64,000 bases of DNA from an uncultured Holophagales bacterium (GTDB lineage Bacteria; Acidobacteriota; Thermoanaerobaculia; Multivoradales; UBA5704): NCBI GenBank assembly GCA_963842525.1, contig CAWJGT010000001.1:640001-704000 (forward strand), in the 5' to 3' direction. The position numbers and the translations under genes were made by a program. Below the pieces are notes generated by a model. It ran no database searches, had not been told where the DNA came from, and saw nothing but the letters and a program-made list of their open reading frames with translations. Positions 26,461 to 58,418 of this stretch are shown one piece after another. Each line of letters begins with the position of its first letter. Positions within the stretch are counted from its first letter, which is position 1.

Positions 26461-26508
26461 GGGCATGTACGTTCGTGGGGTGTTACATCTAGGACCCTGC
26501 AGCCGAAG

Positions 26509-27048
26509 AGGGCCGGGCCGGACCTGCTGCGAGCAAGGGATACGGGTTCAGAGTGCCGCCCGACGGCGGGTAGATGCCGTAGTGGAGGTGCGGCGACGGC
26601 GGGCTGCGGCATTGCCGGAGTTTCCGACGTAGCCGATCACCGTGCCGGCCTCGACCCACTGCCCTTGGCGCACATCACCCCAACTTTCCAGGTGTGCGAA
26701 GCAGTGCTGCCATCCGGCTGGCCCGTTGACCGTATCCGCCACGTTCTCCGGAACCCGTTCGTTCCCAGGCCGGAGATATACCCTTCCGTCGCCGACAGGA
26801 CCGGCGCGTTCCGCTTCGCTAACATGTTGATTCCCTCATGCTGCCGCCCGCCGTTGCGCGGATCGCCGTAGCTGTCCCACAACCGTCCCTTGGCCACACC
26901 CACCACCGGGATTGGTAGCGACTCTGGCGGCGGCTGCGAGAGCAGCTCGTAATAGCGCGGGTCGAGGAGGGGGCATCGTCACGCAGGCTCCGGCGAGGAC
27001 GAGCAGAGGGAGGAAAGCGAGGGCGGCGGAGTGCTTCAGACGTCTCAT
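26509..27048 (-). pseudogene. M23 peptidase lipoprotein, copy 2, frameshifted
   Basis: Signal with LAGAC; HEGINMLA; [10 protein letters not shown]; PHLHYG in different frames. Confidence 0.75.
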
Positions 27049-32656: not shown

Positions 32657-33068
32657 CCGAACTACGCCCATGGGCAGGCTTCGACAGCCTTGTGGACGGG
32701 CTTGTGCAGTTGCAGGTGCAGGCGGGGGCCGCGGCGGCCCGCTCGATCGACGAGATCCTTACGCTGCGCAACTGGTTCATCGGGGCGTGGATCGTCGCCT
32801 ACGAGCAGGAAGGCACCGACAGGGCCCGCTATGGCGAGGGGCTCATTGATGCCTTGGCTGCGGCATTCAAGGCCCGTGGCATTGAAGGGCTCTCGGGGAG
32901 GAACCTCCGGAATTACCGTCAAATCGCCTTGGTCTGGCCGCGGCTGGCGACTCGCCAGATGCCATCGGGCGAGCTTGGCGCACCCGGCCAGATTTGGCAG
33001 ACGTTGTCTGCCGAATCCATGCCCGCCTTACCCACCGGTGGCGAGCTTTTGCCGTGGCAGGACGACGC
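32653..33068 (+). pseudogene. DUF1016/YhcG N-terminal fragment
   Basis: RNWFIGAWIVAYEQEGTDRARYG..GLSGRNLR; ATGA overlap with hsdM; truncated. Confidence 0.75.
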
Positions 33069-35477
33069 CTGCATTTCGCCGTGGACGAGCACGAGGTGCG
33101 GTTCTGCACTCATCTCAAGGGGAAGGAGTCATGGTTCCTCCCCTTCAACCAGGGTTGGAACGACGGCGCAGGCAATCCGCCGAACCCTTACGGATTGAAA
33201 ACCGATTATCTCTGGAAGCGCATCCTCACCCTCGAGGGCCTCACCGACATTCTCGAGAACTACGCCCAGATCGTCGAGACCAAGGACGAGAAAACCGGCA
33301 GGAAAAAGGCGGTGCAGATCTGGCCGCGCTACCATCAGCTCGACGTGGTACGCCAGCTCCTGGCCGATGTCGCGTGGAACGGTGCGGGCAAGCGCTACCT
33401 GATCCAGCACTCGGCAGGGAGCGGCAAATCCAACTCCATTGCCTGGCTCGCCCACCAGCTCATCGGTTTGCGCAAGGACGATGCGGAGGTCTTCGATTCT
33501 ATCCTGGTCGTCACCGATCGGCGCATCCTCGACCAGCAGATTCGGGACACGATCAAGCAGTTCGCCCAAGTGAGCGCTACGGTGGGCCATGCGGAACACT
33601 CGGGAGACCTGCGCCGGCTCATCCAGAGCGGCAAGAAGATCATCATCACCACGGTGCAGAAGTTTCCCTTCGTTCTCGAGGAGATCAGCAAGGAGCGCGA
33701 GCACCGCGGGCGACATTTTGCGATCGTCATTGACGAGGCCCATTCGAGCCAGGGGGGCCGGGCTTCGGCGGCGGTCAGCATGGCGCTCTCGCAAGCCGGC
33801 GCCGAAGAGGACGACGAGACGGCCGAGGACACGATCAACCGGATCATGGAGTCGCGCAAGCTCCTGCCGAACGCGAGCTACTTCGCCTTCACCGCGACGC
33901 CCAAGCCAAAGACGCTCGAGATCTTCGGTGAGCCCTATGAGGCCGAGGGAAAGATCAAGCACAAGCCCTTCCACCCCTACTCAATGAAACAGGCGATCCA
34001 GGAGGGCTTCATTCTCGACGTGCTGCAAAGCTATACGCCGATCGAGAGCTACTACAAGCTGGTCAAGAAGATCGAGGGGGATCCCGAGTTCGACACCAAG
34101 CGGGCGAAGAAAAAACTGCGCCGCTACGTCGAGGGGCACGACCATGCGATCCGGCTCAAGGCCGAGATCATGGTCGACCACTTCCACGAGCAGGTGCTTG
34201 CCCTCAACAGGATCGGCGGCCAGGCGCGGGCAATGGTGGTTACCAGCGGCATCGAGCGGGCCATCCAATACTTCCTCGCCATCCGCGGCTACCTGGTCGA
34301 GCGGAAGAGCCAGCACCGGGCGATTGTCGCCTTTTCCGGCGAGTATGGAGACGAGAAGCTCACCGAGGCCAGCCTCAACGGTTTTCCCAGTAGAGCGATC
34401 CCGGATCGTTTTCGCGAGGACCCGTACCGCTTTCTCGTCTGCGCCGACAAGTTCCAGACCGGCTACGACGAGCCGCTGTTGCACACTATGTATGTGGACA
34501 AGCCCCTGGCCGGGATCAAGGCGGTCCAGACCCTGTCACGGCTGAACCGGGCACATCCCAAGAAGCACGACGTCTTCGTGCTCGATTTCATGAACGATGT
34601 CGACACCATCCAGATGGCGTTCGCCGACTACTATCGGACGACGGTCCTCAGCGAGGAGACCGACCCCGACAAGCTGCACGACCTCCAGGCCGCGCTCGAC
34701 GGCGAACAGGTCTATGCGCAGGACGAGATCGACACCTTGGTCGAGCTCTACCTGGGCGGCGCTGGCCGCGAGCTGCTCGACCCCATCCTGGATTCCTGTG
34801 TCGCCGTCTACCGGGAGCGGCTCGACGAGGACGGGCAGGTCCGATTCAAGGGCGACGCCAAGGCTTTCCTGCGCACCTACGGTTTTCTCGCCTCGATCCT
34901 GCCGTACACCAACGCCGGTTGGGAGAAGCTGTCGATTTTCCTGAGCTTCCTCGTGCCCAAGCTGCCAGCGCCCAAGGAGGACGACCTTTCCAAGGGCATC
35001 CTCGAAGCGATCGACATGGACAGCTACCGGGTCGAAAAGCAGGCCGCGATGCGGATCCAGCTACCGGACACGGACGCCGAGATCGCGCTGGCGCCGACGA
35101 CCGGCGGCGGCCGTAAGCCGGAGCCCGAGCTCGATCGCCTGTCAAACATCCTCAGGGTCTTCAACGATCAGTTCGGCAATATCCCGTGGACCGATGCCGA
35201 CCGCGTGCAGCGTCTGATCACCGAAGACATCCCGGCGCGAGTCGCGGCCGATGCGGCGTATCAGAATGCGAAGCAGAACTCGGACCCGCAGAACGCCCGC
35301 ATCGAGCACGACAAGGCGCTTGCCCGCGTCATGACAGCCGTGCTCAAGGACGACACCGAGCTCTTCAAACAGTTCAGCGACAATGAGTCTTTCCGGCGGT
35401 GGCTGACCGACACAGTGTTCGGAATCACCTACGACCGCCCCGCGGAGGCGGGCCTGGAGCCTCCGCCTGCTCGATAG
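33069..35477 (+). pseudogene. hsdR: Type I R-M restriction subunit lacking most of the N-terminal nuclease domain
   Basis: Begins abruptly at HFAVD; QHSAGSGKS, DEAH, FTATP, KFQTGYD. Confidence 0.85.
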
Positions 35478-39175: not shown

Positions 39176-41418
39176 GTGAAATCGCTGTGCCTTGCCTTGG
39201 CCCTGGCTCTGCTCCTCGCACCGCCGGCCCATGCACAGACCTGGTACGAGTCCTACCACAAGGCCGAGGAGGCGCTGGACGACAAGAAGTGGAGCGAGGC
39301 TGTTCATCACCTCAACGCCGCGTTGGAGCAGAAGCCGAGCTCGAGCGCGAACAGCCGCACCTATGGGATGCGGTTCATCCAGTACTTCCCGTATCTCAAG
39401 CTCGGCATCGCCTACTACCACCTCGGACAGGCCGACGCCGCTCTGCAAGCGTTCGAAACGGAGCAGCGGCAGGGGGCGATCGACCAGTCTGGAGACGGCC
39501 GCGCCCTGTTGCAGACCTACCGCGACCGGATCCAGAGAGAGCAGTCGGCGGAAGCGGCCACGCGGCAGCGCCGCGCGCAAGATGTCGTCGCCGAGAACCT
39601 GGCGCTGGCGCACAGGCTCGAGGAGCAGGGCCGGCTCGAAGATGCTCTCGCTGCTGTCACCAAGGCTCTTGCCGTGGCTCCGGACCATTCCGAGGCCCAG
39701 GATGCGCGGCGGCGGCTCCTGGCTGCGCTGGCTTCGTTGGCCGAAAAGCAGCGGCAGCAGGAGGAAGAGGAGCGGCTCACGAGGCTGCGCCGCCAGTCCC
39801 AGGAGCATCTCCGCGCTGAAGTCGGGGGCCGGCAGGACAAGCCGGAGCGGCAACGTTTCATCGCCCAGAGCCTCCGCCGCGCGACCGAGCTCGAACGCGC
39901 GGGGAGCTCGCGAAATCCCTGGCCGAGCTGCAGGCGGTCCTCGTCCTGGACCCGCGGAACGCGGAGGCCCGAACGATCCAGGAGCGGATCCTGCGTGCGC
40001 AGGCGGCGGCCGCGGAGTCCGGGGCGGTTCGCCAGCTCCTGACCGAAGCCGAGCGACTGTTGCAAGCGGGCGACTACGAGCAGGCCCTGCGAACCGCCAA
40101 CCGCGTGCTGGTGCTGGAACCGGCGAATGACGCGGTGCTCCGGTATATCACCCAGGCGTATGCACGGCTCAGCGATGACTTGCTCGCCTCCGACGACGCA
40201 CCCCCCGCCATCCTCCTCGACGACGGCCCGCCGGTGGTTCCCTCTCCCGAGCTCGTCCTCAGCGGGACGGTCTACGACGACGCACCGGTCAAGATCCAGT
40301 TCCTCGACAAGGACCGGCCGGTAGGCCGGGGAACCGTCCAGGCCCGAGAGCTCCACGGCATCTGGGTCACCAACTTCAGATGGCAGCACCGCGTCCCGGC
40401 CGGGGTCTCGACCCTCGACGTCGTCGCGGTCGACGAGGGAGGGAACCGGACGACGGTCCCGTACAGGGTCGAGTACGTCGTCCCGTTCGTCCGCTCGCTG
40501 TGGTTCCCGGCCTCGATCACCGCCGGCCTCGCCTCCGTGGGCCTCGGCCTCGTGGCCGTGAAGGCGCGGCGCCGGCGCAAGCGGCTGCGGGACCGGTTCA
40601 ACCCGTACATCGCCGGTGCGCCGATCCTGGAGCACGCGCGGTTCTTCGGCCGCCAGCAGTTGCTCGACTATGTGCTGCGGCGGATCTGCAACAACAGCGT
40701 CATGCTCTATGGAGAAAGACGGATCGGCAAGACCTCGTTCCAACACCAGCTCAAGAAGTGTCTTGCCACCCTCGAGGATCCCGACCACGTGCTCTATCCG
40801 GTCTACATCGACCTCCAGGGCACGCCGCAGGACAAATTCTTCGCGACGCTGGCGGCCGAGGTCTTCCATGAGCTCGCGCCGAAGCTGGAAGGCCTGCAGC
40901 CCTCCGCGGCCCCGGTCCAGGAATCCTACGGGTACCGCGACTTCGTCCGGGACGTCCAGCGGGTCCTGAAGGCTTTGAAAAGCCGCACGACCAAAAAGGT
41001 CAAGCTCGTGCTGCTCATCGACGAGGTCGACGAGCTGAATGATTACGACCCGCGGATCAACCAGAGGCTGCGCAGCCTGTTCATGCGGGAGTTTGCCGAC
41101 AACCTGGTTTCGGTCGTCTCCGGCGTGGGGATCAAAAAGGATTGGGACCGTGAAGGGAGCCCCTGGTACAACTTCTTCCAGGAAATCGAGGTCAAGCCCC
41201 TCGATCAGGAGGAGGCCAGATCGCTTATCGAGGCTCCGGTGCGGGGCGTCTTTGCGTTCGAAGAGGGCGTGGCGGACGAGATCATCCGGCGGACCGGCAG
41301 CAAGCCCTACCTGATTCAACGGCTCTGCTCCGGTCTGGTCGATCGGATGCACGAGGAGCGGCGCCGGAGGATCACTCTGGCCGACGTCGAATCCGCGTGC
41401 CGGATCGAGGGGCTCTAG
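39176..41418 (+). CDS. Signal peptide-TPR-TM-P-loop ATPase (frameshift near 39910)
   Basis: AHA signal cleavage, TPRs, TM followed by RRRRKR, NPYIAG, GERRIGKTS, LLIDEVD. Confidence 0.8.
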
Positions 41419-41433
41419 CGAGGATTCGAGACC

Positions 41434-43374
41434 ATGCCGGTCACTCCCTACGTCGTCGGTCAGTGGGTTCGCGAAGAGCGGTTCTACGGCCGCAGCGCGC
41501 TCATTACAGAGATTCTGGAAGGCAACCGGAACTGCCTGTGGATCCTCGGCACGCGCAGGATCGGCAAGACGTCGATCCTCAAGCAGCTCGAGCACCTGAC
41601 CTCGACCGCGCCGAAACCTCGCTATGTCCCGCTGTACTGGGACTTCCAGGGCTCGGAAGAGGCGGAGGATCTTCACCAGGGCTTCCGCGATGCGCTGTTC
41701 AACGCGAGCGACAGGCTGGAGGCGCTCGGCATCCCGCTCGCGGACGTCGACAGCGACGACCTGTTCACCGCGATGAGCCGCCTGCGCCGGGAGCTGCGCG
41801 CGCGCGACCTGGTCCTCTTGCTGCTGGGCGACGAGGTCGAGGAGCTGGTCACGATCCACGAAAGAGCGCCGGGATTCCTCCGCCGGCTGCGCCGCGCGTT
41901 GCAATCGCCCGAGAACATTCGAACGGTTTTCGCGTCGACGATCCGATTGTGGAATCTCGCTGCCGAGGAATCGACGACCTCGCCCTTCCTGCACGGCTTC
42001 ACGCCGCCTCTCCCGATCCGGGGCTTGACCGACGACGAGGCACGCTGCCTCGTTCGCCAGTCGCAGCTTCCGCCCGCTTCGCGGCCGCAGCTCGACGAGC
42101 CGACGATCGAGGTGATGCGGGCCCGCTGCAACAATCACCCTTATCTTCTCCAGCTCCTCGGCGAGCGCTATCTCGAACGCGGGGACCTGGATCAGGCGAT
42201 CGAGGAGATCGCCACCGACGAGATGGTCAGCTTCTTCTTCAGCGCCGACCTGGCGATGCTGACGGAGGCCGAGCGCCACATCCTCGACATCATCGACGAA
42301 CAGAAGGAGCCGACGAGCAAATCCATCCGCGAAAGGCTCGCCCTCGAATCGACGTCGCTCCGTGGTGGCCTGCAACGGCTCGAGCACCTCGGCTTCATCC
42401 ACCGCTCGCCCCAGGGCGAATATTCCCTGGCGAGCTCGTTTTTCAGGAGATGGTTCGCCGAGCTGGCAGAGAGGCGCCGGGGACGGCCCGACATCGAAAA
42501 GCGGCCGACGGTCCTGGCGCCGCGCCGCGCCGCGGCCGGCGTTTCCTCACCGGTGCCACCACTGCGGCGGATCGACAACCGCTACGAGCTTCTCGTCCGC
42601 CTCGGGAACGGCTCCAGCGGCGAGGTCTACAAGGCGCACGACACTCTGTTGCGCACGGTGGTTGCGGTCAAGATCCTGAAGCGCGAGCACTGCGTCGACG
42701 AGGAGGCCGTGGAACGGCTGCGCCGCGAGGTGGTCCTGGCCCGGGACCTGTCGCATCCGAACATCCTCAAGATCTATCACCTCGGCGATGACCAGGGGCA
42801 GAGATACATCACCATGCAATACGTGGACGGCCCGGATCTGTCCAAGGTCATCGCGAAGGAAGCGCCCCTGGACACCGACCGGGCCGTCGTCGTCGCCGGC
42901 AAGCTCGCGGCGGCATTGGCCGCTCTCCACCGGTGCCATGTCCTGCACCGCGACATCAAACCGTCCAACGTCCTGATCGACGAGGCAGGAGAGCCGCGCA
43001 TCACCGACTTCGGCCTGGCGCGCCTCGACTGGGGGCCGGCCGTCACGCGGGACGGGTTCTTCCTGGGCACCCCGGAGTACGCGTCCCCGGAGCAGGCTTC
43101 GGGCGAGCACCTGGACGAACGATCGGACCTCTACGCCCTGGGGATCGTGATCTTCGAGATGGTCACAGGCCGTCGTCCATTCACCGCCGAATCCGCCAAC
43201 GAGATGCTGTTCAAACAGATCCGGCAACCGCCGCCCGCCCCGCGGGACCTCATGCCGGCGATCCCTGCGCCGCTCTCGGACCTGATCCTGCGCTGCCTGG
43301 CCAAGGATCGGGCACACCGCTTCCAGAGCGCCAACGAGCTCCACGCCGCGCTCGGCGCGTTGCGGCAGCCCTGA
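41434..43374 (+). CDS. P-loop ATPase fused to Ser/Thr protein kinase
   Basis: PYVVG, GTRRIGKTS, LLGDEVE; VAVK, HRDIKPSN, DFG, GTPEYASPE. Confidence 0.92.
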   Translation: MPVTPYVVGQWVREERFYGRSALITEILEGNRNCLWILGTRRIGKTSILKQLEHLTSTAPKPRYVPLYWDFQGSEEAEDLHQGFRDALFNASDRLEALGIPLADVDSDDLFTAMSRLRRELRARDLVLLLLGDEVEELVTIHERAPGFLRRLRRALQSPENIRTVFASTIRLWNLAAEESTTSPFLHGFTPPLPIRGLTDDEARCLVRQSQLPPASRPQLDEPTIEVMRARCNNHPYLLQLLGERYLERGDLDQAIEEIATDEMVSFFFSADLAMLTEAERHILDIIDEQKEPTSKSIRERLALESTSLRGGLQRLEHLGFIHRSPQGEYSLASSFFRRWFAELAERRRGRPDIEKRPTVLAPRRAAAGVSSPVPPLRRIDNRYELLVRLGNGSSGEVYKAHDTLLRTVVAVKILKREHCVDEEAVERLRREVVLARDLSHPNILKIYHLGDDQGQRYITMQYVDGPDLSKVIAKEAPLDTDRAVVVAGKLAAALAALHRCHVLHRDIKPSNVLIDEAGEPRITDFGLARLDWGPAVTRDGFFLGTPEYASPEQASGEHLDERSDLYALGIVIFEMVTGRRPFTAESANEMLFKQIRQPPPAPRDLMPAIPAPLSDLILRCLAKDRAHRFQSANELHAALGALRQP

Positions 43375-43615
43375 GAGGGTGTTTGGAAAGTCCTCACCAG
43401 CGAACACGATCGGCCGGCTGATGATCCGGGTCCGTCGTATCATCCTGAGCGTAGCGAAAGATCTGGGCGGTGGTAACGGCTCAGAATCCAAGACCGGAGC
43501 GGGCTCGCGGCCTCCCTTCCCCCAGATCCTTCGCTACGCTCAGGATGACACGACGGGGCTGGGTGCCCAAGACGGACCTTACCAGCTCGCTTGCGGCCCC
43601 TTTCCAAACACCCTC
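43375..43615. mobile_element. MITE with IS5-like ends carrying a REP pair
   Basis: Perfect 16-bp TIR gagggtgtttggaaag/ctttccaaacaccctc; TGA on both flanks; internal catcctgagcgtagcgaa..gatct inverted pair. Confidence 0.75.
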
Positions 43616-43679
43616 TGAAGCGGTCATCAGAGTAGAACCAGGAACGAGACCACGACGGCACCGTCCCGCAGGAAGCGGA

Positions 43680-44537
43680 TCACGGCCCGCCCGCAAGCTC
43701 CACGCCGAGGGCCTTCAGTCGCTGGCCCAGGGCCTCGAAGGTGCTCTCAATCGCTCCTTCAAATCGAATCGGCAACAGCCCTCCCAAGTCTGACGGGAGC
43801 TGCCCCTGCTGTTCTTTGGAAGTTCCCCATTTCTGCAGCACGATGAGCCTCTGGAGGCCTCGCGAGAGTCCCATCGCGATCCCGATCTCGAGCAGCACGT
43901 TGAGACGCGGGTACGAGCTCCCGTCCGGAGCCCGATCATCGGGTGTGCAGACCGCAACGAAGGCGCCGCACTCGTTCATCCGGGAGACCAGCCCCTGCCC
44001 GATCTCCGTGGCAAGGGTCGCCCCTGAGATAGTTTCCGCCACCAAGCCGTTCTCTGTCAGGAACTCCTTGACCCTCCCAGTGGCGCCATCGGCGTGCCGG
44101 TCGTGGCCGTAGATCAGGAAGACCTTCCGGCGGTTCACATAGACCCCGCGCTGCGCCAGCTCCTGCCGGATCTCTCCGGCCATCCATCCAGGATGGGTCG
44201 ACTTCGACTTGGGTATGACGTTGGGAGGGAGGTCGCCGATCTTGAGGCGATCGTAGAAGTTGGTGATCATGAAGATCGGGAGGGAACGCCCGGCATGGGC
44301 CTGCTCCGTGATCTTGCGCGAGAGGTCGAGCCCGACACGGTCCTCGTCGCCGAGAGCCTGTTTATCGGCTTCAATCAGGTCGACGATAATGAAATCCCAG
44401 GTTCCGCCAGAGAACCGGTCGATGAAGTCCTTTACCTTGTCCGCAATCTCCAAGTCGATGTTGTAATGGCGCCGTAGAGACTCCTGGAGCATGCGCATGT
44501 AGTCTTCGGGTTTGTCATCCCAAGCCAGGGCCCGCAT
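43680..44537 (-). CDS. Response-regulator receiver fused to CAP12/Pycsar-type TIR domain
   Basis: REC: WDD, FIIVD, MIT, K. TIR: KVFLIYGHD, TPDD, RLNVLLEIG, LPSDLGG. Confidence 0.85.
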   Translation of the reverse strand: MRALAWDDKPEDYMRMLQESLRRHYNIDLEIADKVKDFIDRFSGGTWDFIIVDLIEADKQALGDEDRVGLDLSRKITEQAHAGRSLPIFMITNFYDRLKIGDLPPNVIPKSKSTHPGWMAGEIRQELAQRGVYVNRRKVFLIYGHDRHADGATGRVKEFLTENGLVAETISGATLATEIGQGLVSRMNECGAFVAVCTPDDRAPDGSSYPRLNVLLEIGIAMGLSRGLQRLIVLQKWGTSKEQQGQLPSDLGGLLPIRFEGAIESTFEALGQRLKALGVELAGGP

Positions 44538-47348
44538 TTGCGTCCTCCTCAGTCCCTCGGCGCATTGCGTGCCAGCAGGGTAAGAATGGCGACGGTGCCT
44601 CGTTCCTCGCTTTTTTTACCGATCTCCAGCGAGCCTCCATAACTCAGGATGTCCCGCCGGTGTTGCCTAAGCGTGTCCTGCGAGCTGAAGCCGCCGAACG
44701 TGCCGCAATCGGAGATCACGGTCAGCCGGGAATAATCGCGCAGTTCCGTTTCTTCCGGCGGCGGTGCGGAGGCCTCGATCTTCTCGAGATCCGTCGACAC
44801 GAGGTCCGCCCAGCTCTCACCCTCGGCGAGCACCCAGCCAGCGAAGGAGTGTCGAGCGTTGGTGAAAAGGTTACGAAGTGTCTCGCGGAGTAGGTGCGGC
44901 TCGCACAAGACGAAGCACTCTGTCTCCATGGCCCGGTACTTTGCCAGCTCGCGGTCCCAGACGTTGCTGTAGCCATGGACGGTGAGCACCTGGTTGGCGT
45001 TCTCCAGTGCCGCCACGATGAGTTCGCGGAACGGTACGATGTAGCGGTGCAGCAGCGTCCTCAGGTACGAGCCGGGCTCCCAGAGAGCATAGAAGATCCG
45101 GGTGCGCAGGCGAACGATGGTACTGAAGTCGCTCTTGGCGACGATATTATTGATCCGGATGTTCTGAAAGATGTTGCCGAGAAGCACAGTGTCCTGAGAG
45201 AACCCTGGCAGCTCGGGCTCGTTTGAGAACTGCTGGGCCTCGGCACGGCTGGTCTGGGCGAAGAAGAGGAGTTGGCGAACGGCGCTGGCAATCTCCTCCA
45301 GGATTCCGGCTGTGTACACGGCGTCCTCAAGGAGCTTCTTGGTTTCCACCTTATCAATGCGGACACGCTGAACTTCTTCCTTCGGGTCGGCGGACTCTCG
45401 GAGGCTCACGAGCCCTTCCAACTCCAGCAAGGCCGCGTCGAGGCTCGAATAGATGGGATTGTGCCCCTTCTTGGGCGTCGTGACTTTGCTGTGGAGGTAG
45501 CGGATGACTTGATGCTTGGCCTTGAGCTCGTGCGCTCCAAGCTCGGTCAGGAGCAGGTTCAAGTTGGCTTTGACCCGGTTCTTCCGGCTGCGGGCCTCTC
45601 CCTCGCTGTCTTGTGGCAGGTTCTGCTCAAAAAAATTGATGAAGCGGGTGGCGGCCTTCTTCATCCGGTTCTTAAGCTCGACGGCAACTTCGGGCTGATG
45701 GAACTTGTGATGCGAGAAGTGCATCAGCATGGAAAGGTTCCAAGCGACGCGCTCATCGCCGAAATACTGGAACAGGTTTTCGGGATATGCGACCCACTCT
45801 TCGGGCTCGCGGCCGCAGGTCAGGACCTCGTGAATGAACTGATCGTAGTCGAACTCGTGATCGAGGAAGGAGAAGACAGAGACACCGAACAGCAGGTGGG
45901 TCTCCGTGTCGACAATCTTCTCGATCTCCGTGATCCGCCGCCGGCCCTCTAGCTCAAACCGCCGCTCGCGGAGGCTCTGGATACGCTCGATCAAGGTGCT
46001 GCGGAGATAACGGAACTTGCCCGTCATCTTGAGGTAGCTGAGGTCCGAAAGGAGAATCCCGAAGAGCTTGTAGAGAGTCTCCTTGTCGGAAAGGTTGGCG
46101 ATCTCCTGGATGAAAGGAGCATAGTCCCGAGATTCCACAACGTTGCGGCAGAGGAGCGCGAGCTTGCCCTCCTGGGAAGCAACTGTGATCGAAACGCGTC
46201 CTATTTCCAAGGTGTAGTCGGCCGGCAAGGGCTGTGAGGTGGGCTCTTCGAAGTCCCGAGAGGTCAGACTGTGGGAACGGAAGTACTTCTGGTCCTGGTT
46301 CATCCAGCGGCGGAAGCTGGGGACCCGCGTTTCGGCCGAGTAATATTGGAACAGCGCACCAATCGTCTGCTGCATCCTCGTGATGTCGTCGCTGTGAATA
46401 TCTGGGAGGTTGTACAGCGAAATGAAGGTGAAGCCCGCGTCGCCGACTGGTACGCCGTTTCCGATGCCGCGCAGGAGCCGCTTGATGCGGGCTACGAAGT
46501 TGCTGGTGTGCAGCCCCATCCGGTTGAGCAGGCAGATGGCGGTGATGCTCTGCACCGACTGGGAGGCGAGCAGGGAGACAAGGTTCCGTAGTTTCTCCGA
46601 AGTATGAAGGGAAAAGAGCAACAGGAGGATATGACCGTTTTGGATTTTCTCGATGCTGGGAGGGAGCAGGAAGTAGCTGCTGGAGGTTTCGAGCGAATGG
46701 ACGAACACGCACGGCTTCGGTTCCTTGTTCTGGGTCAGCCGGCGGTCCTCAACGAACTCCTTGAAGCGTACATCCTCGCGGTTGAAGGTGGTCACGATGG
46801 CCGAGCCTCGATCGACCGCCTCTTCGATGGCGGCCCAGATCTTGTCTCCGTGCTCACTAAGCAGACATTCCACCCGGATCGCCGTCGTGAACCGCCGGAG
46901 ATCCATCTGATAGAAATTGAAGTCGATGGCTTGTGCGGACTCAAGGTGATCGAACAACTCGATGTCGCTAAAGTGGGGCCGGAAACCGTTGGGTAGCAGC
47001 AGCTTCTCTTCCGGCAGTACCGTGACTGGATTGATCTTGAAGATCTTGTCGGCGGCAATGTCGGCGGATTCGACGAAAGGGATCGGACGCGTGGTCATCG
47101 CGTGGATGCGCAGAGGCGGAGACTGGTCGTTGAAGACGAGACGTGGATCGGCGATGAGGTACTCTCCGGTCACTACTACGCAGAGCACGCCGACCGGAGC
47201 CCCGCCGACCTCCTTGACGATCTCCGCCATCCTTCCGACCAGAGTCCCCGTGGCCATGACATCGGTGACGATGAGGACCTGCTCCCCTTTGAAGTCAAGA
47301 AGCCCGCGGTTCTCGAAGTTCAGGAATGGATAATGGCCAAGGTAGTGG

Positions 47349-49006
47349 GTATCTGTTTACCGTCAGCGGCACTTTTGGGGAAGGTTTTCCCTGGACACAC
47401 GTCCGCGCTGGCCAGGCGACCTGACGAGGGCGAGCGGCTACCGACCTGGAGCCACGGATAACTCGTGGCGAGAACTGTTACGGTGGCTGTGACGCAGGAA
47501 GTATTGCCTCAAGCTTCGGTAGCTGGGGGCTGCGCAGAAGCTGGGGCAAGATCTCGAGTGTCCCGACTTGGTGTTGCTGAAATGTGCGCAGGGCACTCAT
47601 CAAGACCGCTTGCGCCTGGGACCCCTCGGCCGTCCGATTTCCCCCAGATGTCTTGCGGTTGATGACCGCCGGGCGAATCCCTTGTTCGGCCGGCCAATTG
47701 GTCGCCTCCACATCCGTGCGTTCCAGGAAGACAAACAGCTGCTCCTGGTGACGTATCAAATGCTGAGCCAGACGCTGGTTGTCGGGGTTCGTGAACTGCC
47801 CCGACAGACGCCTTTCCATCTGGAGCTCCAAGTCCTGCTTGACCTTCTCCAGCGCCTCGCCGCTGAGCTTGCCCGCGTCCCGCTGATCTCGCGCCTCCAA
47901 GGCGGCCTGCAGGATCTCTTTCACCGCCCGAGGAAAGCGCACCGCACCCCCTGTCGCCTTCTCCAGCAGCTCCTCGCAACGGCGCAACAGATGCGCCAGA
48001 CAGGTCTGATGAGTCGCTTCTTCAAATTTCTGATAGGGAGCCCAACCATCAGCCACCAGCACGCCGACAAAGCCCTCCCCCAGGACCTCAGAGGCCTCGG
48101 CATAGCCACGACCCGGCTGGATGCTGTAGACCGTCTCGCTGCGATTGGTGAACACCCACAACCACACGCTATAGCCCCCCTCCCGCCAGCCCGTCTCGTC
48201 CGGGTACACCACAGGAGAAGCTCCGGATCTTCGCCTTCAGCTCCTCGTACAAGGGCTCCAGCTTCTTACTCATGCGAAGCAGCGCGCGGCACAGGGCCGA
48301 GCGCGACACAGACAGTCCAGCCAGCTCCTTCAGCAACGCGGCGATCTTGCCGTAGCTCAAGCCTCCGACCTTGTTGAGCCAGGCGGCGAGCCCCAACACG
48401 TTTGGACCGAGTTGCACGTTGCCGACCCGGAACGCCTGGGAAGTCTGGCGCGGGTGACGCCCCACAGCTTCCCGGCCACATGCCGAGCACTTCCCATAAT
48501 GGAGGATGAACTCCGTCGTCACCGGCCGAATCGGCGGCAGATCGGTCTGATACTGGCGAGCTTCGCCCTGCGGAATGACCTGACCCCCACAGTGCTCACA
48601 ATACAGCGGGCACTCCACCACGATGGTTTCGTCGACGTGATCGGGCACAGCTCGAGTCGCTTGCTGACCATATTGATCCCCGGCTTTGCGCCCTGGAGAC
48701 TTGGGATCCTCGCTCGGATCTCCCTTCGAGAAGGGGGCAGCCTGGCGTTTGCCCCGGCGCCGTAGCTCCTCGACAAGTTTCTCCAGATCGACGATTCGGC
48801 GCTTCAGGTGCGCAATCTGGCGCTCCTGCTCCTCCACCCGCTGGCGAAGCTCACCGTTGTCTTGGCGAAGCTCAGAGTTCTCTTGAAGGAGTTCCTCGTA
48901 AGTCGGCATGCCTGAAAGACATTAGACCATGCCGAGAAGAGAACTTCAAGCCCTTGCGGACGTGCCACCGCTCGGGGAAGGCGGCACTAGGGCGGTAAAC
49001 AGATAC
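47349..49006 (-). mobile_element. IS66-family insertion sequence (single-ORF, ISBst12-like)
   Basis: 14-bp TIR gtatctgtttaccg; 8-bp TSD ggtagtgg at 47341-47348 and 49007-49014. Confidence 0.93.
47478..48909 (-). CDS. IS66 transposase (frameshift near 48210)
   Basis: Leucine zipper, CEHCG zinc ribbon, DETGW, ADG, QTCLAHLLR, TNWPAEQGIRP. Confidence 0.9.
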
Positions 49007-49556
49007 GGTAGTGGATCGTCACCTTGTCGCGTTCGTCTTCGATCGAGGCGTGGACGTGCTCGACGATGTGCTTCGAGGTCGCGGTCGAGGTCACGAGCGC
49101 CGAAAATGGAGTCTTGCGGCGGATCTCCCGGATCTTGGCGGCGAGCATTGCAATGAACTCGTTGAAGTCCCCCCGCTGGTCGAAAAGCTCCCATAGAGTG
49201 ATGAACTTCTCCTGAAATCTTCCCGAAGTGAGCTCGAACGCCGCCCGACCCTCGTGCCCATTGCCCATCTGCTGCTTCCAGACGTTCGCGTCGAGGAGCA
49301 TGCCGCTCTTCGGGTTTTCGATCAGTTCCCGGAGTTTGGGCGCGTATTCGATAAGGGCAGATTCGTTGGTTGCATCAAGAATATCAGGCATGGCGTACAC
49401 TTATCCGGCAGAAATCGACGTTGTGGACGCAGAGTCTTTTCGTGCTATGGCGAACAGATCTTCAAGATATCATTAGCGTCGTCCACCGTTTCTGTGACAA
49501 TCCCGTGACAGAGAAGGATTGAAACTTCCCGATCTTCGCCGCGAGGAACCCTCTAT

Positions 49557-52959: not shown

Positions 52960-55900
52960 TCAGGCGGCTGCGGCGGGCTCTTCCTCCGGGGCCGCCGGGC
53001 GGCGGCGGCCGAAGAGGCGGGCGATACGTGCGAAGGGCCGCCACTCCACAATGTCATCGAACAAGCTATATGCGACCGGCGTGCCAAGCAGGGTGAGCAG
53101 CAGCGCCATGGTCTGGCCGCCCATGATCACCGAGCCGATGGCCCGGTTGGTGCCCGCGCCGGTGCCCGAGGAGGCGACCAGCGGGATCATGCCGGCCACA
53201 AAGGCCAGCGTAGTCATGAGGATCGGCCGCAACCTGTCGCGGTTGGCCAGCCGGATCGCCTCCGCCCGCGGCAGGCCCTTGGCCCGCAGGCCGATGGTGT
53301 GGTCGATCTGCAGGATGCTGTTCTTCTTTACAATCCCGAAGAGCACCAGGATGCCCAGCGACGAGAAGATGTTCACCGACTGGTCGAGCAGCACCAGCGA
53401 CAGGAGAGCGAACGGCACCGTCATGGGCAGCGCCAGCAGGATGGTGACCGGGTGGAGCCAGCTCTCGAACTGGGCGGCCAGGATCAGGTACATGAAGACG
53501 ATCGACAGCAGGAAGGCGATCATGAAGTTCCGCGCCGCCTTACCCTGCTCGCGCGACCGGCCGGTGAAGCCGTAGGAGTAGGCGGACGGCATCTTGAGGT
53601 CCTGCGCCTCCTGCATGAGGGCGTCGAGCACGGTCTGCGACGAATTGCCCGGCAGCATGTTGGCGTAGAGCATGACCTGCCGCCGCCGCGAGATGCGGTT
53701 GACCAGCGACGGGCCCTCGCCCTCTTCCATCGTCACCACGTCGCGGACGTTGACGGTGCCGCCGCGCATCGTCGGGATCTCGGCCTGTGCAATCCCCTGC
53801 GCGTCGCTCCGGTCGCTCTCCTCGGCCCGCACGTGCACCTCGTACTGCTCGCCGCCCTCCATGTAGCTGGTGATCTCCTGGCCGCCGACGAGGACGTTGA
53901 GGGTGGAGGCAATATCCTGCACGTTGACGCCCAGGTCCGCGGCCTTGGCGCGGTCGATGCGCACCCCGAGCTCGGGCTTGCCGACGATGAGGTTGGTATC
54001 GGGGTCGACCACGCCGGGCGTGGACTTGAGCCGGGCCATGAGCTTCTGGGAGTAGACCGTGAGCTGGTCGAGGTCCGGGCCGCCGATCCAGAACATGATC
54101 TCGGTGTTGATGCCGCCGCCGAAGGCGTTGACCTGCGACACCAGGGTGCGCAGGTTCAGGGCCGCGTACTGCGGCAGGATCTCCTTGCGGACCTTGTCCT
54201 GGATGTCGAACTGCGTGCTCTCGCGCTCTTTGACCGGCACGAGGCCGACATAGATGACCGCCAGGTTCTTGGTCTGCTGCGGGTCGTCGCCGATGGTGAG
54301 GACGGTCCGGTCGACGCCCGGGATCTTGCGGATCCGCGAGGCGATCGAGTTGCCGATCTTCTCCGTGGACTCCAGGCTCGACCCTTCCGGCACGCGCACC
54401 TGGACCTCGAACTGCGATTCGTCGTCGACCGGCAGGAAGGTCTTGTCCACGATCTTGAACAGCGGGCCCATGGAGAAGAATACGCCCAGCATGAGCAGGA
54501 CGATGACCCAGCGGTGGGCCATGGACCAGTCGAGGAGCGCCAGGTAGCCGCGCTCGACGAGGGCGTAGGGGCCGCGGCGGCTGCCCGCCTCCACGGCGTG
54601 CTCCCGTTCGGCATGGCTTTCGTCCTCGTCCTCCTTCTTTTCGACCGGGCGCAGCCAGCGCGAGCACATCATCGGCGTCAGGGTGAAGCTGACCAGCAGC
54701 GACACGGCCACGGCAGCCGCCATGGTGACGCCGAACGAGTTCATGAAGCGGCCGACGATGCCGCCCATGAAGGCCACGGGCAGGAAGACCGCGATCAGGG
54801 ACAGCGAGGTGGCGAGGACCGCGAGCGCGATCTCGCCGGTGCCGTGGAGGGCGGCCTCCCGTGGCGTCATCTTCTTCTCTTCGAGGAAGCGGAAGATGTT
54901 TTCCAGCACCACCACGGCGTCGTCGATCACGATGCCCACCACCAGGGCGAGCGCCAGCAGGGTGATGACGTTGAGCGTGAAATCCATGTACTGCATCACG
55001 CCGAAGGTGGCGATGAGCGAGGTGGGGATCGCCACGGCCGAGATGATGGTCAGGCGGAACTTCTTGAGGAAGAGGAGCACGATCAGCGAGGCGAGCAGGG
55101 CGCCCAGGACCAGATGCTCCTGCACCGCGGCGACCGCGGCATGGATGTACTCCGACTGGTCGCGGACGACGGTCATGTCCCAGCCTTTGGGGAGCTGGCT
55201 GCGGAGCAACTCGATGCGCTCCTTGACGCGCTCGATGACCTCGGCCGTGTTGGTGCCTGACTGCTTGCGGACCTGGAGCACCACCGCGGGCCTGCCGTCC
55301 ACCCGGGCAATGGTCGCCGGCTCGGCGATGCTGTCCTCGACGCGGGCGACGTCGCGCACCTTGACGGGGTAGCCGTTGCGGGGCGCGATCGCGATGTCGC
55401 CGAATTCCGCCGGGTTGGCGACGCGGCCGTAGGTGCGCAGGGTCAGGTCGCGCAGCCCCTGCTCCACCTGGCCGCCGGGGATCTGGACGTTCTGCGCCTG
55501 GAGAGCGCGGACGAGGTCGGCCACGGTCAGCCCCATGGCGGCGAGCTTGTTGGTGTCAGCAACGATATTGATCTGCCGCGGCTGGCCGCCGATGATGCGT
55601 ACCTGGCCGACGCCCAAAGTCGATTCAATCTGGCGCTTCAAGACCTTGTCCGCCAGCTCGGTGACCTCGCGGGTCGGGGCCGGGCCGGCCAAGGCGATCG
55701 AAAGGACCGGCGAGGCGTCGGCGTCGATCTTCGAAATGACCGGCGGATCGGCCTGGCGCGGCAGCTCTGCGAGGATGGTGTTGACCTTGTCCCGGACCTC
55801 CTGGGCCGCCACGTCGCCGTCTTTCTCCAGGTCGAACTGGATGTTGACGATCGAGATGCCCTCCGAGGAGGTGGACATGAGCTGGTCGATGCCGCTGATG

Positions 55901-56121
55901 GTGTTGACCGCCTCCTCGATCTTGTCGGTGACGTCGGTCTCCATCTCCTCCGGTCCGGCTCCGATCAGCCGCGTGGTGACCGTGACCATCGGGAAGTCGA
56001 CCTTGGGGAAGCGGTCCACGCCCAGGCTGAAGTAGGCGACCATGCCCACCACGACCAGGGCGAGGATGAGCACCGTCGCGAAGACCGGACGGCGGATGCA
56101 GATCTCGGCGAGCTTTTTCAT
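52960..56121 (-). CDS. RND efflux permease (AcrB/HAE1 family)
   Basis: [28 protein letters not shown]. Confidence 0.95.
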
Positions 56122-56139
56122 CTCACGTCTCCTCGCGGC

Positions 56140-57102
56140 TCACCCGCGGCCCGCGGCGCTGGGCTCCCGCCGGGAATCGAGATCGATCTCGACCTTGGCG
56201 AAGAGGCCCGGCGACAGACGGCCGTCACGGTTGGAAAACTCGGTCTCGACCGCGACGGTGCGGGTCGAGGAGTCGACGACGCCGCCCACCAGGGTCACCC
56301 GGCCGGTGAAGGTCTCGCCCGGATACGGATCGACCGTGGCGGTCACCTTCTGACCCTCGCGCACCTGCGAGAGGTAGCGCTCGGGCAGCCGGAACCGCAG
56401 CTTGATCGGCGCGGTCTGGACGATCACGAAGGCGACGGTGGCTTCGCCCAGGCGCTCGCCGACGTCGGTCCGCTTCTCGGCCACCACGCCGGTCAGGGGC
56501 GAATGGAGCGTGGAGTCGGCGAGCCGCTGGCGCGCCAGGTCGCGGGCGGCCTCGGCAGCCTCGACCCCGGCCTGGGCGGTCTGGTAGCTGCTCTGCGAGC
56601 GGTCGTAGGCGGCGCGGGAGACCGAGTCCTTGGCGACCAGCTCCTCCTTGCGGTGGAAGTCGCGCTCCGCCTCGGCCGCGGCGGCCTTGGCCTGGGCCAC
56701 CTCGGCGTCGGCCCGCTTGAGGTCGAGGGACAGGTATTGGGTCTCGATCTGGAGCAGCGGCTGGCCCCTGCGGACCCGCGAGCCTTCGTCGACGAACATC
56801 CGTCCGACCCGGCCGGGCACGCGCACGGCGACCTCGGAGCTCACCGGCGCCACGAGCTCGCCGGTGGCCGACACCAAGCCTCCGTCTCCCTCCTCCACGA
56901 CCGGCGCGCCGGCAGCGTTCCCGTTCTGCGGCCGGGCGAGGCCGGCCACGTCCTTCACGTCATCCGGCAGAGGCGGCGGGGTCGTCTCCACGGCGGCATT
57001 CGGGGTCTCGGGCGCGCCCTCCGAGGCGTCCGAGCCGCACGCCGTCAGCCCTGCGACGGGCAATAACAACAACAACGATATCGAGAGAAGCTGACGCTTC
57101 AT
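56140..57102 (-). CDS. RND periplasmic adaptor (MFP) lipoprotein
   Basis: Lipobox LTAC; VDEGSRVRRGQPL; SPLTGVV; LSPGLF. Confidence 0.92.
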   Translation of the reverse strand: MKRQLLSISLLLLLPVAGLTACGSDASEGAPETPNAAVETTPPPLPDDVKDVAGLARPQNGNAAGAPVVEEGDGGLVSATGELVAPVSSEVAVRVPGRVGRMFVDEGSRVRRGQPLLQIETQYLSLDLKRADAEVAQAKAAAAEAERDFHRKEELVAKDSVSRAAYDRSQSSYQTAQAGVEAAEAARDLARQRLADSTLHSPLTGVVAEKRTDVGERLGEATVAFVIVQTAPIKLRFRLPERYLSQVREGQKVTATVDPYPGETFTGRVTLVGGVVDSSTRTVAVETEFSNRDGRLSPGLFAKVEIDLDSRREPSAAGRG

Positions 57103-58418
57103 TGCAAACCCTCCGGGGAAAAAGTCTTTTTCAACAGCCCGGCAGCGGCCCAGACCTGCAGCTCCGCCAGGTTGCGGTCGAGCTGGCTCGTGGCCACGGC
57201 ACGGCGGGCTTCCGCGAGAGATGTTTCGGCGGCCTCGGCCTCCAGGGAGGTCAGCTCCTGGGCGCGGTACAGCTCATTGGCCTGGGCGTATTCGGCCTCG
57301 GCGGCGGCGAGCTCCTCGCGGGCGAGCTGCAGGCTGGCTGCGGAGGTCTCGAGCGCCACCAGGGCCTGGCGCACCTCCTCGCGCACGGCCTGCTCCGCCT
57401 GCTGCACCTGGAACCCGGCCTGCCGTTCGCGCTCCTGGGCGGTGATCACCCGCCCCTTGATCTCGCCGCTGGAGAAGATCGGAACGTTCACGCGCAGCGA
57501 GAGCTGCCCGTACTGATCGGACGGGAAGGCCGAACGCTGGCTGATCCATGCGCCGTCCGCCGTGACCAGCGGCAGGTAGGCCCCCTTCTGCTTGCCGATT
57601 TCCAGGTGGGCGATCTCCTGGGCGGTCCGGGCCTGGACCACCTCGGGACGGATCTGCGCCGCCGAGGCCAGCAGCTCCGGTTCGGAGGGAAGCGGCGGAA
57701 AGACGTCCCCGGGGTCGGTCACCTGGAGCGGCGCGTCGAGCGCAAGATCGAGCCGCAGCCGGCCGACCGCGGCCTCGCGGGACTGCCGGGCCGCGGCCAA
57801 GCGCCGCTCGGCGCCCTTGATATCGGCCTCGGCGCGCAGGACGTCCACCCGCGTGGACTCGCCGGCCTCGAAGAAGATCTGCGCCTGATCGCGCCGGCGG
57901 CGGGCCAGATCGACGTTCATCTGCTCGACGGAGAGCAGCTCTTCGGCTTCCAGGATGGCGAGGTAGTTGGCGACCACGCTGGCGATCACCTGGTCCTCGG
58001 CGTCGGAGAGCCCCTGGCGGGCGCTCTCGATGCCGAGCCGGGCCTGCTGGATCGCCTTGCGCTCGCGGTTGCCGGCGTAGACCGGCTGCGAAACGACCAG
58101 GCGGTAGCTCCAGTCGTTCTCGGGAAGGATCGTGCGCGCGTCCTCTCCTGACCCGAAGGCGACCTCCTGGTCATTGCGGGTGACGTTCCCTTGGAGGTTG
58201 ATCTTCGGGAGGATGGCCGAGAAGGTCACGCGTTCCTGGGCCTGGAGCGCCGACACCTCGGACCGCGTCCGGCCCAGGAACGGGTTCTCGGTCAGGGCCC
58301 GGCGCAGGGCCTCGGGCAGCGTCAGAGTCACAGGCGATGCCGGGGTCGTGGGCGGGGAGACCTGCGCCGCCACCGTGGACGGCAACAATAAAAGGAACAA
58401 CAAGGCTCCGGATTTCAA
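57099..58418 (-). CDS. TolC-family outer-membrane efflux protein
   Basis: Signal peptide, LTLPEALRRALTENP, helical OEP repeats; overlaps the MFP start. Confidence 0.9.
   Translation of the reverse strand: MKSGALLFLLLLPSTVAAQVSPPTTPASPVTLTLPEALRRALTENPFLGRTRSEVSALQAQERVTFSAILPKINLQGNVTRNDQEVAFGSGEDARTILPENDWSYRLVVSQPVYAGNRERKAIQQARLGIESARQGLSDAEDQVIASVVANYLAILEAEELLSVEQMNVDLARRRRDQAQIFFEAGESTRVDVLRAEADIKGAERRLAAARQSREAAVGRLRLDLALDAPLQVTDPGDVFPPLPSEPELLASAAQIRPEVVQARTAQEIAHLEIGKQKGAYLPLVTADGAWISQRSAFPSDQYGQLSLRVNVPIFSSGEIKGRVITAQERERQAGFQVQQAEQAVREEVRQALVALETSAASLQLAREELAAAEAEYAQANELYRAQELTSLEAEAAETSLAEARRAVATSQLDRNLAELQVWAAAGLLKKTFSPEGLQ

Follow-up and report, generated by a model that had tools for sequence, protein, structure and literature searches.

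The stretch of DNA analysed here (the window: 64,000 nucleotides, positions 640,001 to 704,000 of contig CAWJGT010000001.1 in assembly GCA_963842525.1, from an uncultured Holophagales bacterium) contains a gene for a large, sensor-like protein that is split by an insertion sequence (IS) of the IS66 family. It is followed by a gene for a protein in which a receiver domain is fused to a TIR domain. Sensor gene, IS and receiver-TIR gene all lie on the minus strand (Table 1). A first-pass annotation, made from the sequence alone, had reported the IS-split gene and its neighbour, and this observation is confirmed. It had read the pair as a candidate new two-component-like defence system with a histidine-kinase-like sensor, and this interpretation is partly supported. 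The architecture is real, conserved and apparently undescribed, and it stood up to each of the computational checks that the annotation had put forward. The module looks like a rare, horizontally acquired pair of genes for a large cytoplasmic sensor-like protein and a receiver-TIR protein. The greatest uncertainty concerns the divergent GHKL/His module of the sensor, which may not be a true histidine kinase (HK).

Table 1. Features of the module and its neighbourhood (positions in the window; PRTase, phosphoribosyltransferase; PRPP, phosphoribosyl pyrophosphate; CA, catalytic and ATP-binding; AF2, AlphaFold2)
Feature	Position	Strand	Evidence or remark
Sensor gene 5' fragment, codons 1-128 and first base of codon 129	49007..49391	-	FELTSGR; ends ..VTIHY at the IS
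Target-site duplication copy 1, 8 bp, GGTAGTGG on + strand	49007..49014	.	Direct repeat flanking the IS
IS66-family insertion sequence, 1658 bp	47349..49006	-	14-nt perfect terminal inverted repeats; zf-IS66 and DDE_Tnp_IS66 matches
Target-site duplication copy 2, 8 bp, GGTAGTGG on + strand	47341..47348	.	Direct repeat flanking the IS
Sensor gene 3' fragment, 930 codons and stop, open throughout	44549..47340	-	PRPP loop, second PRTase-like domain, helical region, GHKL domain
PRPP-binding loop VLIVTDVMATG of PRTase-like domain 1	47246..47278	-	Pribosyltran, APRT 6fsp and own-genome PRTase profiles
Second, degenerate PRTase-like domain (approximate boundaries)	46088..46870	-	Loop ILLLLFSLHTSEKLR in place of acidic PRPP loop
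Codon of invariant His (His629 of C-terminal fragment)	45461..45463	-	Motif GHNPI; candidate phospho-accepting His
GHKL (Bergerat-fold) CA-like domain, HK/PDK class	44561..45055	-	hhalign, AF2, Foldseek, VIA-align; N-box 44852-44872
Shine-Dalgarno-like GAGGAGG, overlapping sensor stop	44544..44550	-	6 nt before receiver-TIR ATG
Receiver-TIR gene, 285 aa, intact	43680..44537	-	PF10137, PDB profile matches, AF2 model, residue conservation
Receiver domain	about 44148-44537	-	Asp53 codon 44379-44381
TIR domain	about 43758-44126	-	Glu217 codon 43887-43889
STAND-MarR-Ser/Thr-kinase gene	41434-43374	+	MarR-like winged helix-turn-helix; Pkinase E 3.6e-53
nSTAND1 NTPase gene	40060-41418	+	Neighbour of module
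Type I restriction-modification HsdM/HsdR	30660-35477	+	HsdM_N; HsdR SWI2_SNF2/ResIII/T1R_D3; 8-13 kb from module

The IS has the characters of the IS66 family, namely a DDE_Tnp_IS66 transposase, terminal inverted repeats and an 8-bp duplication. Instead of the canonical three-gene tnpA-tnpB-tnpC layout it has one transposase gene within 1658 bp, and we take it to resemble the single-ORF IS66 subgroup. In the copy at this locus the transposase gene is split into two overlapping open reading frames (ORFs; 48169-48909 and 47478-48212) that match zf-IS66 (E 9.2e-6) and DDE_Tnp_IS66 (E 1e-29). The host genome (9.95 Mb in 34 contigs) contains 15 full-length, near-identical copies, of which 10 are flanked by perfect 8-bp duplications and six encode an uninterrupted transposase of 466-476 aa, the ORF being split in the others. 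The element is therefore currently or recently active. The copies measure 1648-1660 bp and differ by 1-10 nt in size; these small differences are either real or the product of homopolymer sequencing errors, and the latter would be a reason for caution with frameshift calls elsewhere in the assembly.

Removal of the IS and of one copy of the duplication joins 128 and 930 codons into a frame of 1058 codons that starts from the ATG at 49391 and runs from ..VTIHY into LGHYPF.., as had been proposed. All eight intact homologues (1057-1205 aa, 29-51% identical) read [VIP][HYQ]YLG[HDP]YP[FY] across the junction. The 5' fragment is matched by the family profile at E 1.6e-49 (C1:689008-689352 in contig coordinates). 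The 3' fragment is an open frame of about 930-935 codons without stops in which every family-conserved residue is kept, and the insertion must therefore be recent. The sensor module is thus inactivated by the IS in this genome, with the insertion after codon 128 and both remaining frames intact. The motifs listed by the first-pass annotation (FELTSGR, VLIVTDVMATG, LRNLFTNARH, SDCG and GGSLEI..GT) are all present. Its statement that the protein has no transmembrane (TM) segment agrees with a crude Kyte-Doolittle scan, in which no hydrophobic 19-mer was TM-like and the maxima were beta-strands of the PRTase domains.

The ATG of the receiver-TIR gene, at 44537, comes 11 nt after the sensor stop codon (TGA, 44549-44551), and the spacing and the ribosome-binding site GAGGAGG are as previously annotated. 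The TIR domain matches PF10137 (CAP12-PCTIR_TIR) at E 1.1e-13, with 51.6 bits against a cut-off of 24.7, which bears out its earlier assignment to the Cap12/Pycsar family. Searched against the PDB, a profile of six receiver-TIR sequences matched PycTIR 8jsj (E 2.5e-6), Cap12/TIR-STING 7un8 (E 7.5e-5) and the receiver 3a0r_B (E 8e-4). The AF2 model of the protein (predicted local distance difference test, pLDDT, 79.5) has two flavodoxin-like domains. Its residues 1-130 are predicted to form a (beta-alpha)5 fold that matched the receivers 3grc_A and 6lgq_D in Foldseek, with a root-mean-square deviation (rmsd) of 3.4-3.6 over 129 columns.

Homologues of this protein form 94 clusters, and the 89 of 260-310 aa were compared, five being dropped for length. 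The five receiver residues involved in phospho-acceptance are all present in the window protein and are conserved throughout the family: D7 in 88, D8 in 86, D53 in 88, T92 in 82 (Ser in six more) and K112 in all 89 homologues. T92 and K112 are features of receivers that act as phosphorylation switches. In the TIR domain, E217 is found in 88 and R211 in 89 homologues. E217 aligns with the Glu of VVFEFG (PRDNVVFEFG) in 7un8 and presumably corresponds to the catalytic residue of the TIR domain. The claim of an intact receiver fused to a TIR domain therefore holds. Precomputed annotation places PF10137 on 92 of the 94 homologues (one of the two exceptions, P0200, carries '-') and PF00072 on two of the 94.

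The N-terminal part of the sensor was annotated earlier as an orotate PRTase-like domain followed by a probable second, degenerate PRTase domain, and both assignments are supported at the level of sequence. Domain 1 resembles orotate and adenine PRTases (OPRT and APRT) and carries the OPRT-like FELTSG motif. Sequence searches of the window sensor detect only its PRPP loop, and the Pfam Pribosyltran match (PF00156, E 2e-4) stays with 21.1 bits below the cut-off of 26.3. Pribosyltran matches at E ≤ 0.01 were found in 24 of 40 sampled family members, the best at 5.3e-12. Among PDB sequences, an eight-sequence sensor profile matched nothing but PRTases, with APRT 6fsp (E 2.2e-4) and further chains of APRT, OPRT and hypoxanthine-guanine PRTase, and the NCBIfam matches are APRT and PyrE models with PyrR models among the weak ones. 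Compared by hhalign with PRTases of its own genome, domain 1 gave Prob 91.9 and E 7e-7, where E-values in this and the other hhalign domain comparisons are pairwise and carry no database correction. The region around ILLLLFSLHTSEKLR matched domain 1 (Prob 89.5, E 2e-6, 82 columns; control region Prob 0.4), and in the homologue P0006 it matched ComF/GntX at E 8e-5 to 2e-4. Therefore, the sensor probably has two PRTase folds in tandem, of which the second lacks the acidic loop. Weak matches of this second domain to hypoxanthine and uracil PRTases (HPRT/UPRT) were also found. The variants P0017 and P0037 have a third, better preserved PRTase copy, which in P0037 matches Pribosyltran at E 5.3e-12 and weakly resembles the loops of ShosT/PsyrT.

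In the PRPP loop of domain 1, VLIVTDVMATGT, the Asp D149 is invariant in the family, and where the usual acidic pair would begin the window protein has Thr, and the family Thr, Ser or Ala. Since the first acidic residue is lost, the loop seems to fit ligand binding better than robust catalysis. PRTase folds act as metabolite sensors in PurR and PyrR.

The PRTase part could instead be an enzyme that makes or destroys a phosphoribosyl or nucleotide signal bound by the receiver-like or TIR domain, or a ShosT-like effector that poisons the nucleotide pool, but we consider this quite unlikely. Domain 1 would suit such a role with its FELTSG motif, the greater part of a PRPP loop and the invariant Asp, and so would the well-scoring third copy of some members. 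The replaced acidic residue argues against it, as does the conservation of T92 and K112, which points to a phosphorylation switch in the receiver. In the available parts of two papers (PMC8195603, PMC9503650), receiver-like domains of conflict systems are proposed to be nucleotide-responsive switches that work independently of a kinase, which would also suit an enzymatic PRTase. Such cRec domains are said, in the part of PMC9503650 available, never to occur with a histidine kinase, whereas the receiver described here always adjoins the GHKL protein.

For the C-terminus of the sensor, a profile of the last ~135 residues (98 sequences) was searched against 39,680 six-frame ORFs of the genome and gave 20 non-self matches at E ≤ 10. 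For nineteen of them the ORF overlaps with one of the genome's 90 Pfam HATPase_c matches (background 227 of 39,680 ORFs), and 18 overlap the HATPase_c domain itself. Compared by hhalign with 58 CA domains of HKs from the same genome, the region gave Prob 97.8 and E 9.7e-13 over 99 columns. The AF2 model of the last 373 aa (pLDDT 93.5; predicted template modelling score, pTM, 0.87) had as its best Foldseek matches HKs (LvrB, YF1-type, CpxA, 6lgq_C) and the pyruvate and branched-chain ketoacid dehydrogenase kinases (PDK/BCKDK). VIA-align placed model residues ~206-370 on the CA domains of LvrB, HK853, VanS and WalK with Z 13-14.3 and rmsd 2.6-3.2 over 133-146 residues (LvrB: Z 14.3, rmsd 3.2, 145 aa; HK853: Z 13.2, rmsd 2.7, 135 aa), and all 50 matches listed were HK or PDK/BCKDK. 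The models and profiles thus support a GHKL fold of the HK/PDK class, in line with the HATPase-like end of the first-pass annotation, which had named the lack of such a fold as a reason to abandon its claim. The two Asn of the N-box, N826 and N830, are each present in 97 of 98 sequences and R832 is present in 81. T892 is present in 95, and a conserved Thr (95 of 98) together with Gln/His occupies the place of the G2 box, or ATP lid. About 200 residues before the N-box lies a His (His629) that is conserved in 89 of the 89 sequences with a residue at this column, in the family motif G-H-N/S-P-I.

The two genes were found together wherever this could be seen. Pattern scans gave one locus in a genome (a metagenome-assembled Pirellulaceae genome) and five in metagenomes. 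One of these six, L006, breaks off within the sensor gene and so gives no information on the partner. In all five loci that reach past the sensor stop, a receiver-TIR gene of 277-290 aa follows directly on the same strand, with 37-56% identity to that of the window. The co-occurrence that the first-pass annotation had put forward as a check is therefore strict, at 6/6 loci counting the window. Four further pairs probably share a contig, judging from the equal size of the longest contig. The identity matrices of sensor and partner over 10 pairs are correlated (Mantel r 0.90, permutation p 2e-4), which is evidence of joint inheritance but not of contact. In the window and in the ORFs flanking the pair in the five loci, neither a stand-alone receiver (Response_reg match) nor a conserved third gene was detected. 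Effector swapping, for which the first-pass annotation had suggested a search, was not seen among the six paired loci, all of which have a receiver-TIR partner; the variation found is in the sensor, with an N-terminal TIR_2 in P0077 and P0080 and EAD7 in P0082.

An exhaustive profile search gave 243 sensor representatives (at 50% identity) at E ≤ 1e-3, of which 148 reached E ≤ 1e-30. The sensor family is small but real, and at the sequence level purifying selection at the putative catalytic residues of both proteins is clear. The most divergent sensor variants lack a recognisable CA domain: it is undetectable in P0082 and P0094, and P0080 has only a weak N-box match (E 0.013). In P0084 (739 aa, from a metagenome) a deletion joins the sensor, past its His-bearing helical region, to position 74 of the receiver profile, so that the CA domain, the first 73 receiver positions and the phospho-Asp are missing. 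P0084 was the single hit in a search for Rosetta-stone fusions of the two genes, and with CA domain and phospho-Asp both missing it was rejected as a functional fusion. It is either a second, independent type of decay of the module or an assembly chimera.

From these data we propose that the module is a new Detocs-like phosphorelay pair, that is, a two-component-like conflict module that is probably used for anti-phage abortive infection and is inactivated in this genome; we hold the chance of this to be about even. The 1058-aa cytoplasmic protein would be the sensor-transmitter. Its tandem PRTase folds, one with a largely intact loop and one degenerate, would form the ligand-binding input for a phosphoribosyl compound or nucleotide, and the helical region with the invariant His, together with the divergent HK/PDK-type GHKL domain, would be the transmitter. 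On activation, a phosphoryl group would pass from the His to Asp53 in the receiver of the downstream protein. By analogy with its TIR family, the fused Cap12/PycTIR-type TIR domain would then self-associate, and its assembly would lead to NAD+ hydrolysis and cell arrest. PRPP or nucleotide sensing, TIR oligomerisation and the role in defence are steps that we infer.

In its logic, the nearest known system is Detocs (DtcA/DtcB/DtcC). As far as described in the available part of its report (bioRxiv 10.1101/2023.01.24.525353), Detocs, like the pair described here, has a sensor kinase beside a response-regulator-like protein with a metabolite-depleting effector output, and in both the predicted course leads from His-to-Asp activation to abortive infection. 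The same part of the report gives three genes including a stand-alone receiver, DtcB, that serves as a buffer, and no counterpart of DtcB is present in the window or in the five loci. Furthermore, DtcA is described there with a tetratricopeptide-repeat (TPR) input and a canonical kinase, and the effector as a purine nucleoside phosphorylase (PNP, 80%) or a nuclease or TM protein, whereas the pair described here has tandem PRTase folds, a non-canonical kinase and a TIR effector.

Several findings weigh against this proposal, and most of them concern the relay. Firstly, the match of the receiver to Response_reg (PF00072) is weak (E 0.11, 13.1 bits, below the cut-off of 30.2). Secondly, the GHKL domain deviates from that of orthodox HKs (HisKA plus HATPase_c), with which, as with PDK/BCKDK, the sensor shares the Bergerat-fold CA domain, the N-box Asn and a preceding helical domain. 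The G1 Asp, the residue that makes the contact with adenine in GHKL ATPases, is absent, as its column contains Ser (46), Thr (18) or Val (13) in 77 of 98 sequences, and of the G1 box only the Gly is kept (76 of 85). The G2/ATP lid (GxGLGL) corresponds to an 11-column deletion in the profile alignment, which agrees with the remark of the first-pass annotation that no clear G2 box is present. The domain falls below every Pfam threshold: HATPase_c has no match in the window sensor at E ≤ 1 or in 40 members at E ≤ 0.01, and none of the 90 HATPase_c matches of the genome is at the sensor gene. Thirdly, the His lies in no detectable H-box. HisKA was found neither in the window sensor nor in any of the 40 members, and the His region with the helices that follow gave Prob < 1% in hhalign against HisKA and HisKA_3 of the same genome (HisKA_2 has no member in this genome for comparison). 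In the AF2 model the His is at the start of a helix and not in its middle. Lastly, PDK/BCKDK, which are Ser kinases, fit the model as well as HKs do. The histidine-kinase-like sensor of the first-pass annotation thus stands as far as the GHKL fold of the HK/PDK class is concerned, but it is non-canonical, and the dimerisation and histidine phosphotransfer (DHp) domain that was expected beside it was not recovered as HisKA or HisKA_3 similarity around the invariant His. Because the G1 Asp is absent, the G2 lid deleted and HisKA/HisKA_3 similarity lacking, His-to-Asp phosphotransfer is plausible on sequence grounds, but unproven.

Two links to known families were tried for this region and rejected. 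A link to HATPase_c_2 (anti-sigma type) was dropped because the small ORF that is the best sub-threshold match of the CA profile is not among the HATPase_c_2 matches of the genome. PF22561 (HisKin-conflict), suggested by an ESM-Atlas feature search, had no match (window E ≤ 1, 0/40 members, genome E ≤ 10), a result that also counts against a histidine kinase.

The same deviations would suit a module that worked without a His-Asp relay. In that case the GHKL domain would be a Ser/Thr kinase of the PDK/BCKDK or anti-sigma type or a nucleotide-driven conformational switch, the receiver-TIR protein would be controlled by Ser/Thr phosphorylation or by binding, and the invariant His would be structural or otherwise catalytic. 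PDK1-4 and BCKDK match the model at Z 13.0-13.7 (PDK4 Z 13.7), over up to 219 residues if the helical part is included, although there the sensor and the PDK helical domain align loosely (rmsd 8.5-10.5). The position of the His at a helix start, the missing G1 Asp and G2 lid and the lack of HisKA or HisKA_3 similarity also suit this explanation. Still, without Asp phosphorylation it would be hard to see why the receiver keeps its full set of phospho-acceptor residues (82-89 of 89 homologues). Moreover, the His is conserved in 89 of 89, and the sub-threshold CA-profile matches are in HATPase_c ORFs, mostly multi-domain sensor kinases, and not in the HATPase_c_2 anti-sigma type. We therefore regard a module of this kind, with either form of control over the receiver-TIR protein, as unlikely.

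The proposed role of the relay pair in defence has to be weighed against its distribution and surroundings. GC content is 0.55-0.62 over 44000-49500 and 0.63-0.71 in the flanks, as noticed before. The sensor is single-copy in this genome and was found in none of 40 relatives (one of which has a 34-residue match to the PRPP loop only) and in none of 400 genomes sampled from the phylum. The module neighbours two adjacent STAND-type NTPase genes, which may form a separate conflict system beside it, and a gene for a TrkA-like protein; the type I restriction-modification genes are further away (Table 1). In another locus (L005) the neighbours encode an nSTAND3-like ATPase and a Pkinase-TIR_2 protein, and in L003 a phage-integrase-family fragment (L003:64-726) directly upstream of the sensor gene hints at carriage by a mobile element. 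Other observations do not favour a defence role. The neighbours in L002 are metabolic (radical SAM, glyoxalase, GH47), no plasmid sequence was matched by the sensor in tblastn, none of 33 pattern matches in viral contigs was confirmed as a sensor relative, and gene context is available for six loci and four inferred ones among the 243 family representatives.

These last observations would suit a pair that serves no immunity but tunes NAD+ or nucleotide homeostasis, or a stress response such as dormancy, to PRPP or nucleotide levels. Such a metabolic regulatory pair could be built on the precedent of PurR and PyrR, of which PyrR is among the weak NCBIfam matches, and the metabolic neighbours in L002 and the lack of phage or plasmid linkage in our searches would agree with it. 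We nevertheless find it very unlikely, in view of the sporadic distribution (0/40 relatives, 0/400 phylum genomes), the low GC, the STAND, restriction-modification and TIR genes among the neighbours and the TIR_2 or EAD7 fusions of the sensor variants. The TIR domain furthermore belongs to the Cap12/PycTIR effector family and resembles the PADLOC candidate PDC-S35, and inactivation by the IS is tolerated.

The IS also bears on the direction of control. If the pair worked like a toxin-antitoxin system, constitutive phosphorylation would keep the TIR domain off, and loss of the kinase during infection, through ATP or PRPP collapse or a phage inhibitor, would free the NADase. Guard-type logic is common in defence systems, and a degenerate nucleotide pocket could make the activity sensitive to nucleotide pools. 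In the window, however, a disrupted sensor lies beside an intact receiver-TIR ORF, a combination for which such an arrangement predicts toxicity, unless expression of the downstream gene is silenced by the IS as well. That it is tolerated fits a sensor that activates its partner rather than one that acts as an antitoxin. Also, His and Asp mutants of Detocs lose defence and are not toxic, according to the available part of its report (bioRxiv 10.1101/2023.01.24.525353). A toxin-antitoxin arrangement is therefore highly improbable.

Compared with other systems, the proposed phosphorelay pair combines known parts in a way that we did not find described, as the first-pass annotation had suspected. 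The TIR domain is of the same family (PF10137) as that of CBASS Cap12 (TIR-STING) and Pycsar PycTIR, with the Glu aligned to that of 7un8. In these effectors it is switched by a cyclic-nucleotide-binding domain, whereas here its fusion partner is a receiver in which all phospho-acceptor residues are present. TIR domains of this family are expected to hydrolyse NAD+ when they assemble. The type I PRTase fold with PRPP loop is shared with PurR/PyrR, ShosT, PsyrT, retron type III and Ophion OpnC. In the last four, the PRTase is an effector or toxin within another architecture, whereas here two folds are placed at the N-terminus of a kinase-like protein and the first acidic residue of the loop is missing. 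That PRTase domains occur repeatedly in defence systems is stated in the available part of a recent preprint (bioRxiv 10.1101/2025.09.30.679545).

Neither PADLOC nor NCBIfam has a match to the full architecture. PDC-S35 of PADLOC shares the TIR domain (E 2.3e-11), its models leaving the receiver part uncovered, and PDC-M60C matches the receiver N-terminus weakly (E 0.0037). No PADLOC model covers the sensor: the window sensor fragments, P0006 and P0012 had no match, in a release whose set of Detocs models was not established, and the matches of P0037 and P0077 were limited to ShosT/PsyrT PRPP loops and a ThsB-like TIR, without any kinase model. Single-sequence scans of the helical region and the kinase end against Pfam, NCBIfam and PADLOC gave nothing. 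In the literature no description of this domain combination was found, a search that did not extend to supplements and figures such as the figure of predicted HATPase + REC systems in PMC13092281 (DefensePredictor), a source available in part.

HsdM_N is the sole match of the 729-aa HsdM ORF at the threshold used. Between the convergent STAND-kinase and receiver-TIR genes lies a nested palindromic element (43374-43616) with outer arms of 30 nt (80% complementary) and inner arms of 36 nt (94%). Since the 36-nt arm has 29 occurrences in the genome at ≤ 5 substitutions, the element is a dispersed repeat like repetitive extragenic palindromes or miniature inverted-repeat transposable elements (REP/MITE-like), and it may act as a bidirectional terminator. 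The flanks contain ordinary chromosomal genes, among them a gene of the APH(6)/hydroxyurea-kinase family (25591-26871, plus strand) and a resistance-nodulation-division (RND) efflux operon (52960-58418, minus strand) for an AcrB-like pump, an HlyD-like adaptor and an outer-membrane factor.

A bolder form of the phosphorelay reading, which we put forward as tentative, is that the pair represents an unrecognised class of immune two-component systems, in which the PRTase module reads a phosphoribosyl metabolite and a new type of transmitter switches a TIR NADase through receiver phosphorylation. The metabolite could conceivably be PRPP, a nucleotide, or a phage-made or NAD-derived ribosyl compound. 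The transmitter, equally tentatively, would use a His outside any known DHp family, with Ser or Thr in place of the adenine-binding Asp and no ATP lid. Because its pocket is altered in this way, the phosphoryl donor is possibly other than ATP.

If true, this would make the pair the first case of a TIR gated by phosphorylation and of an immune sensor with a PRTase fold. From Detocs it is known that a phosphorelay can by itself be an immune system, and the pair would extend this idea by its effector, its input and its kinase. Control of a TIR NADase by a receiver would differ from the activation of TIR domains by cyclic nucleotides or by filament seeding, and the PRTase-fold input would point to metabolite sensing and not to protein sensing. 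The divergent kinase module is missed by current hidden Markov model (HMM) libraries, so that other candidate systems may contain cryptic kinases of this sort that have been overlooked. The intact pairs in the family are directly testable, and the locus itself illustrates the turnover of defence genes through a currently active IS.

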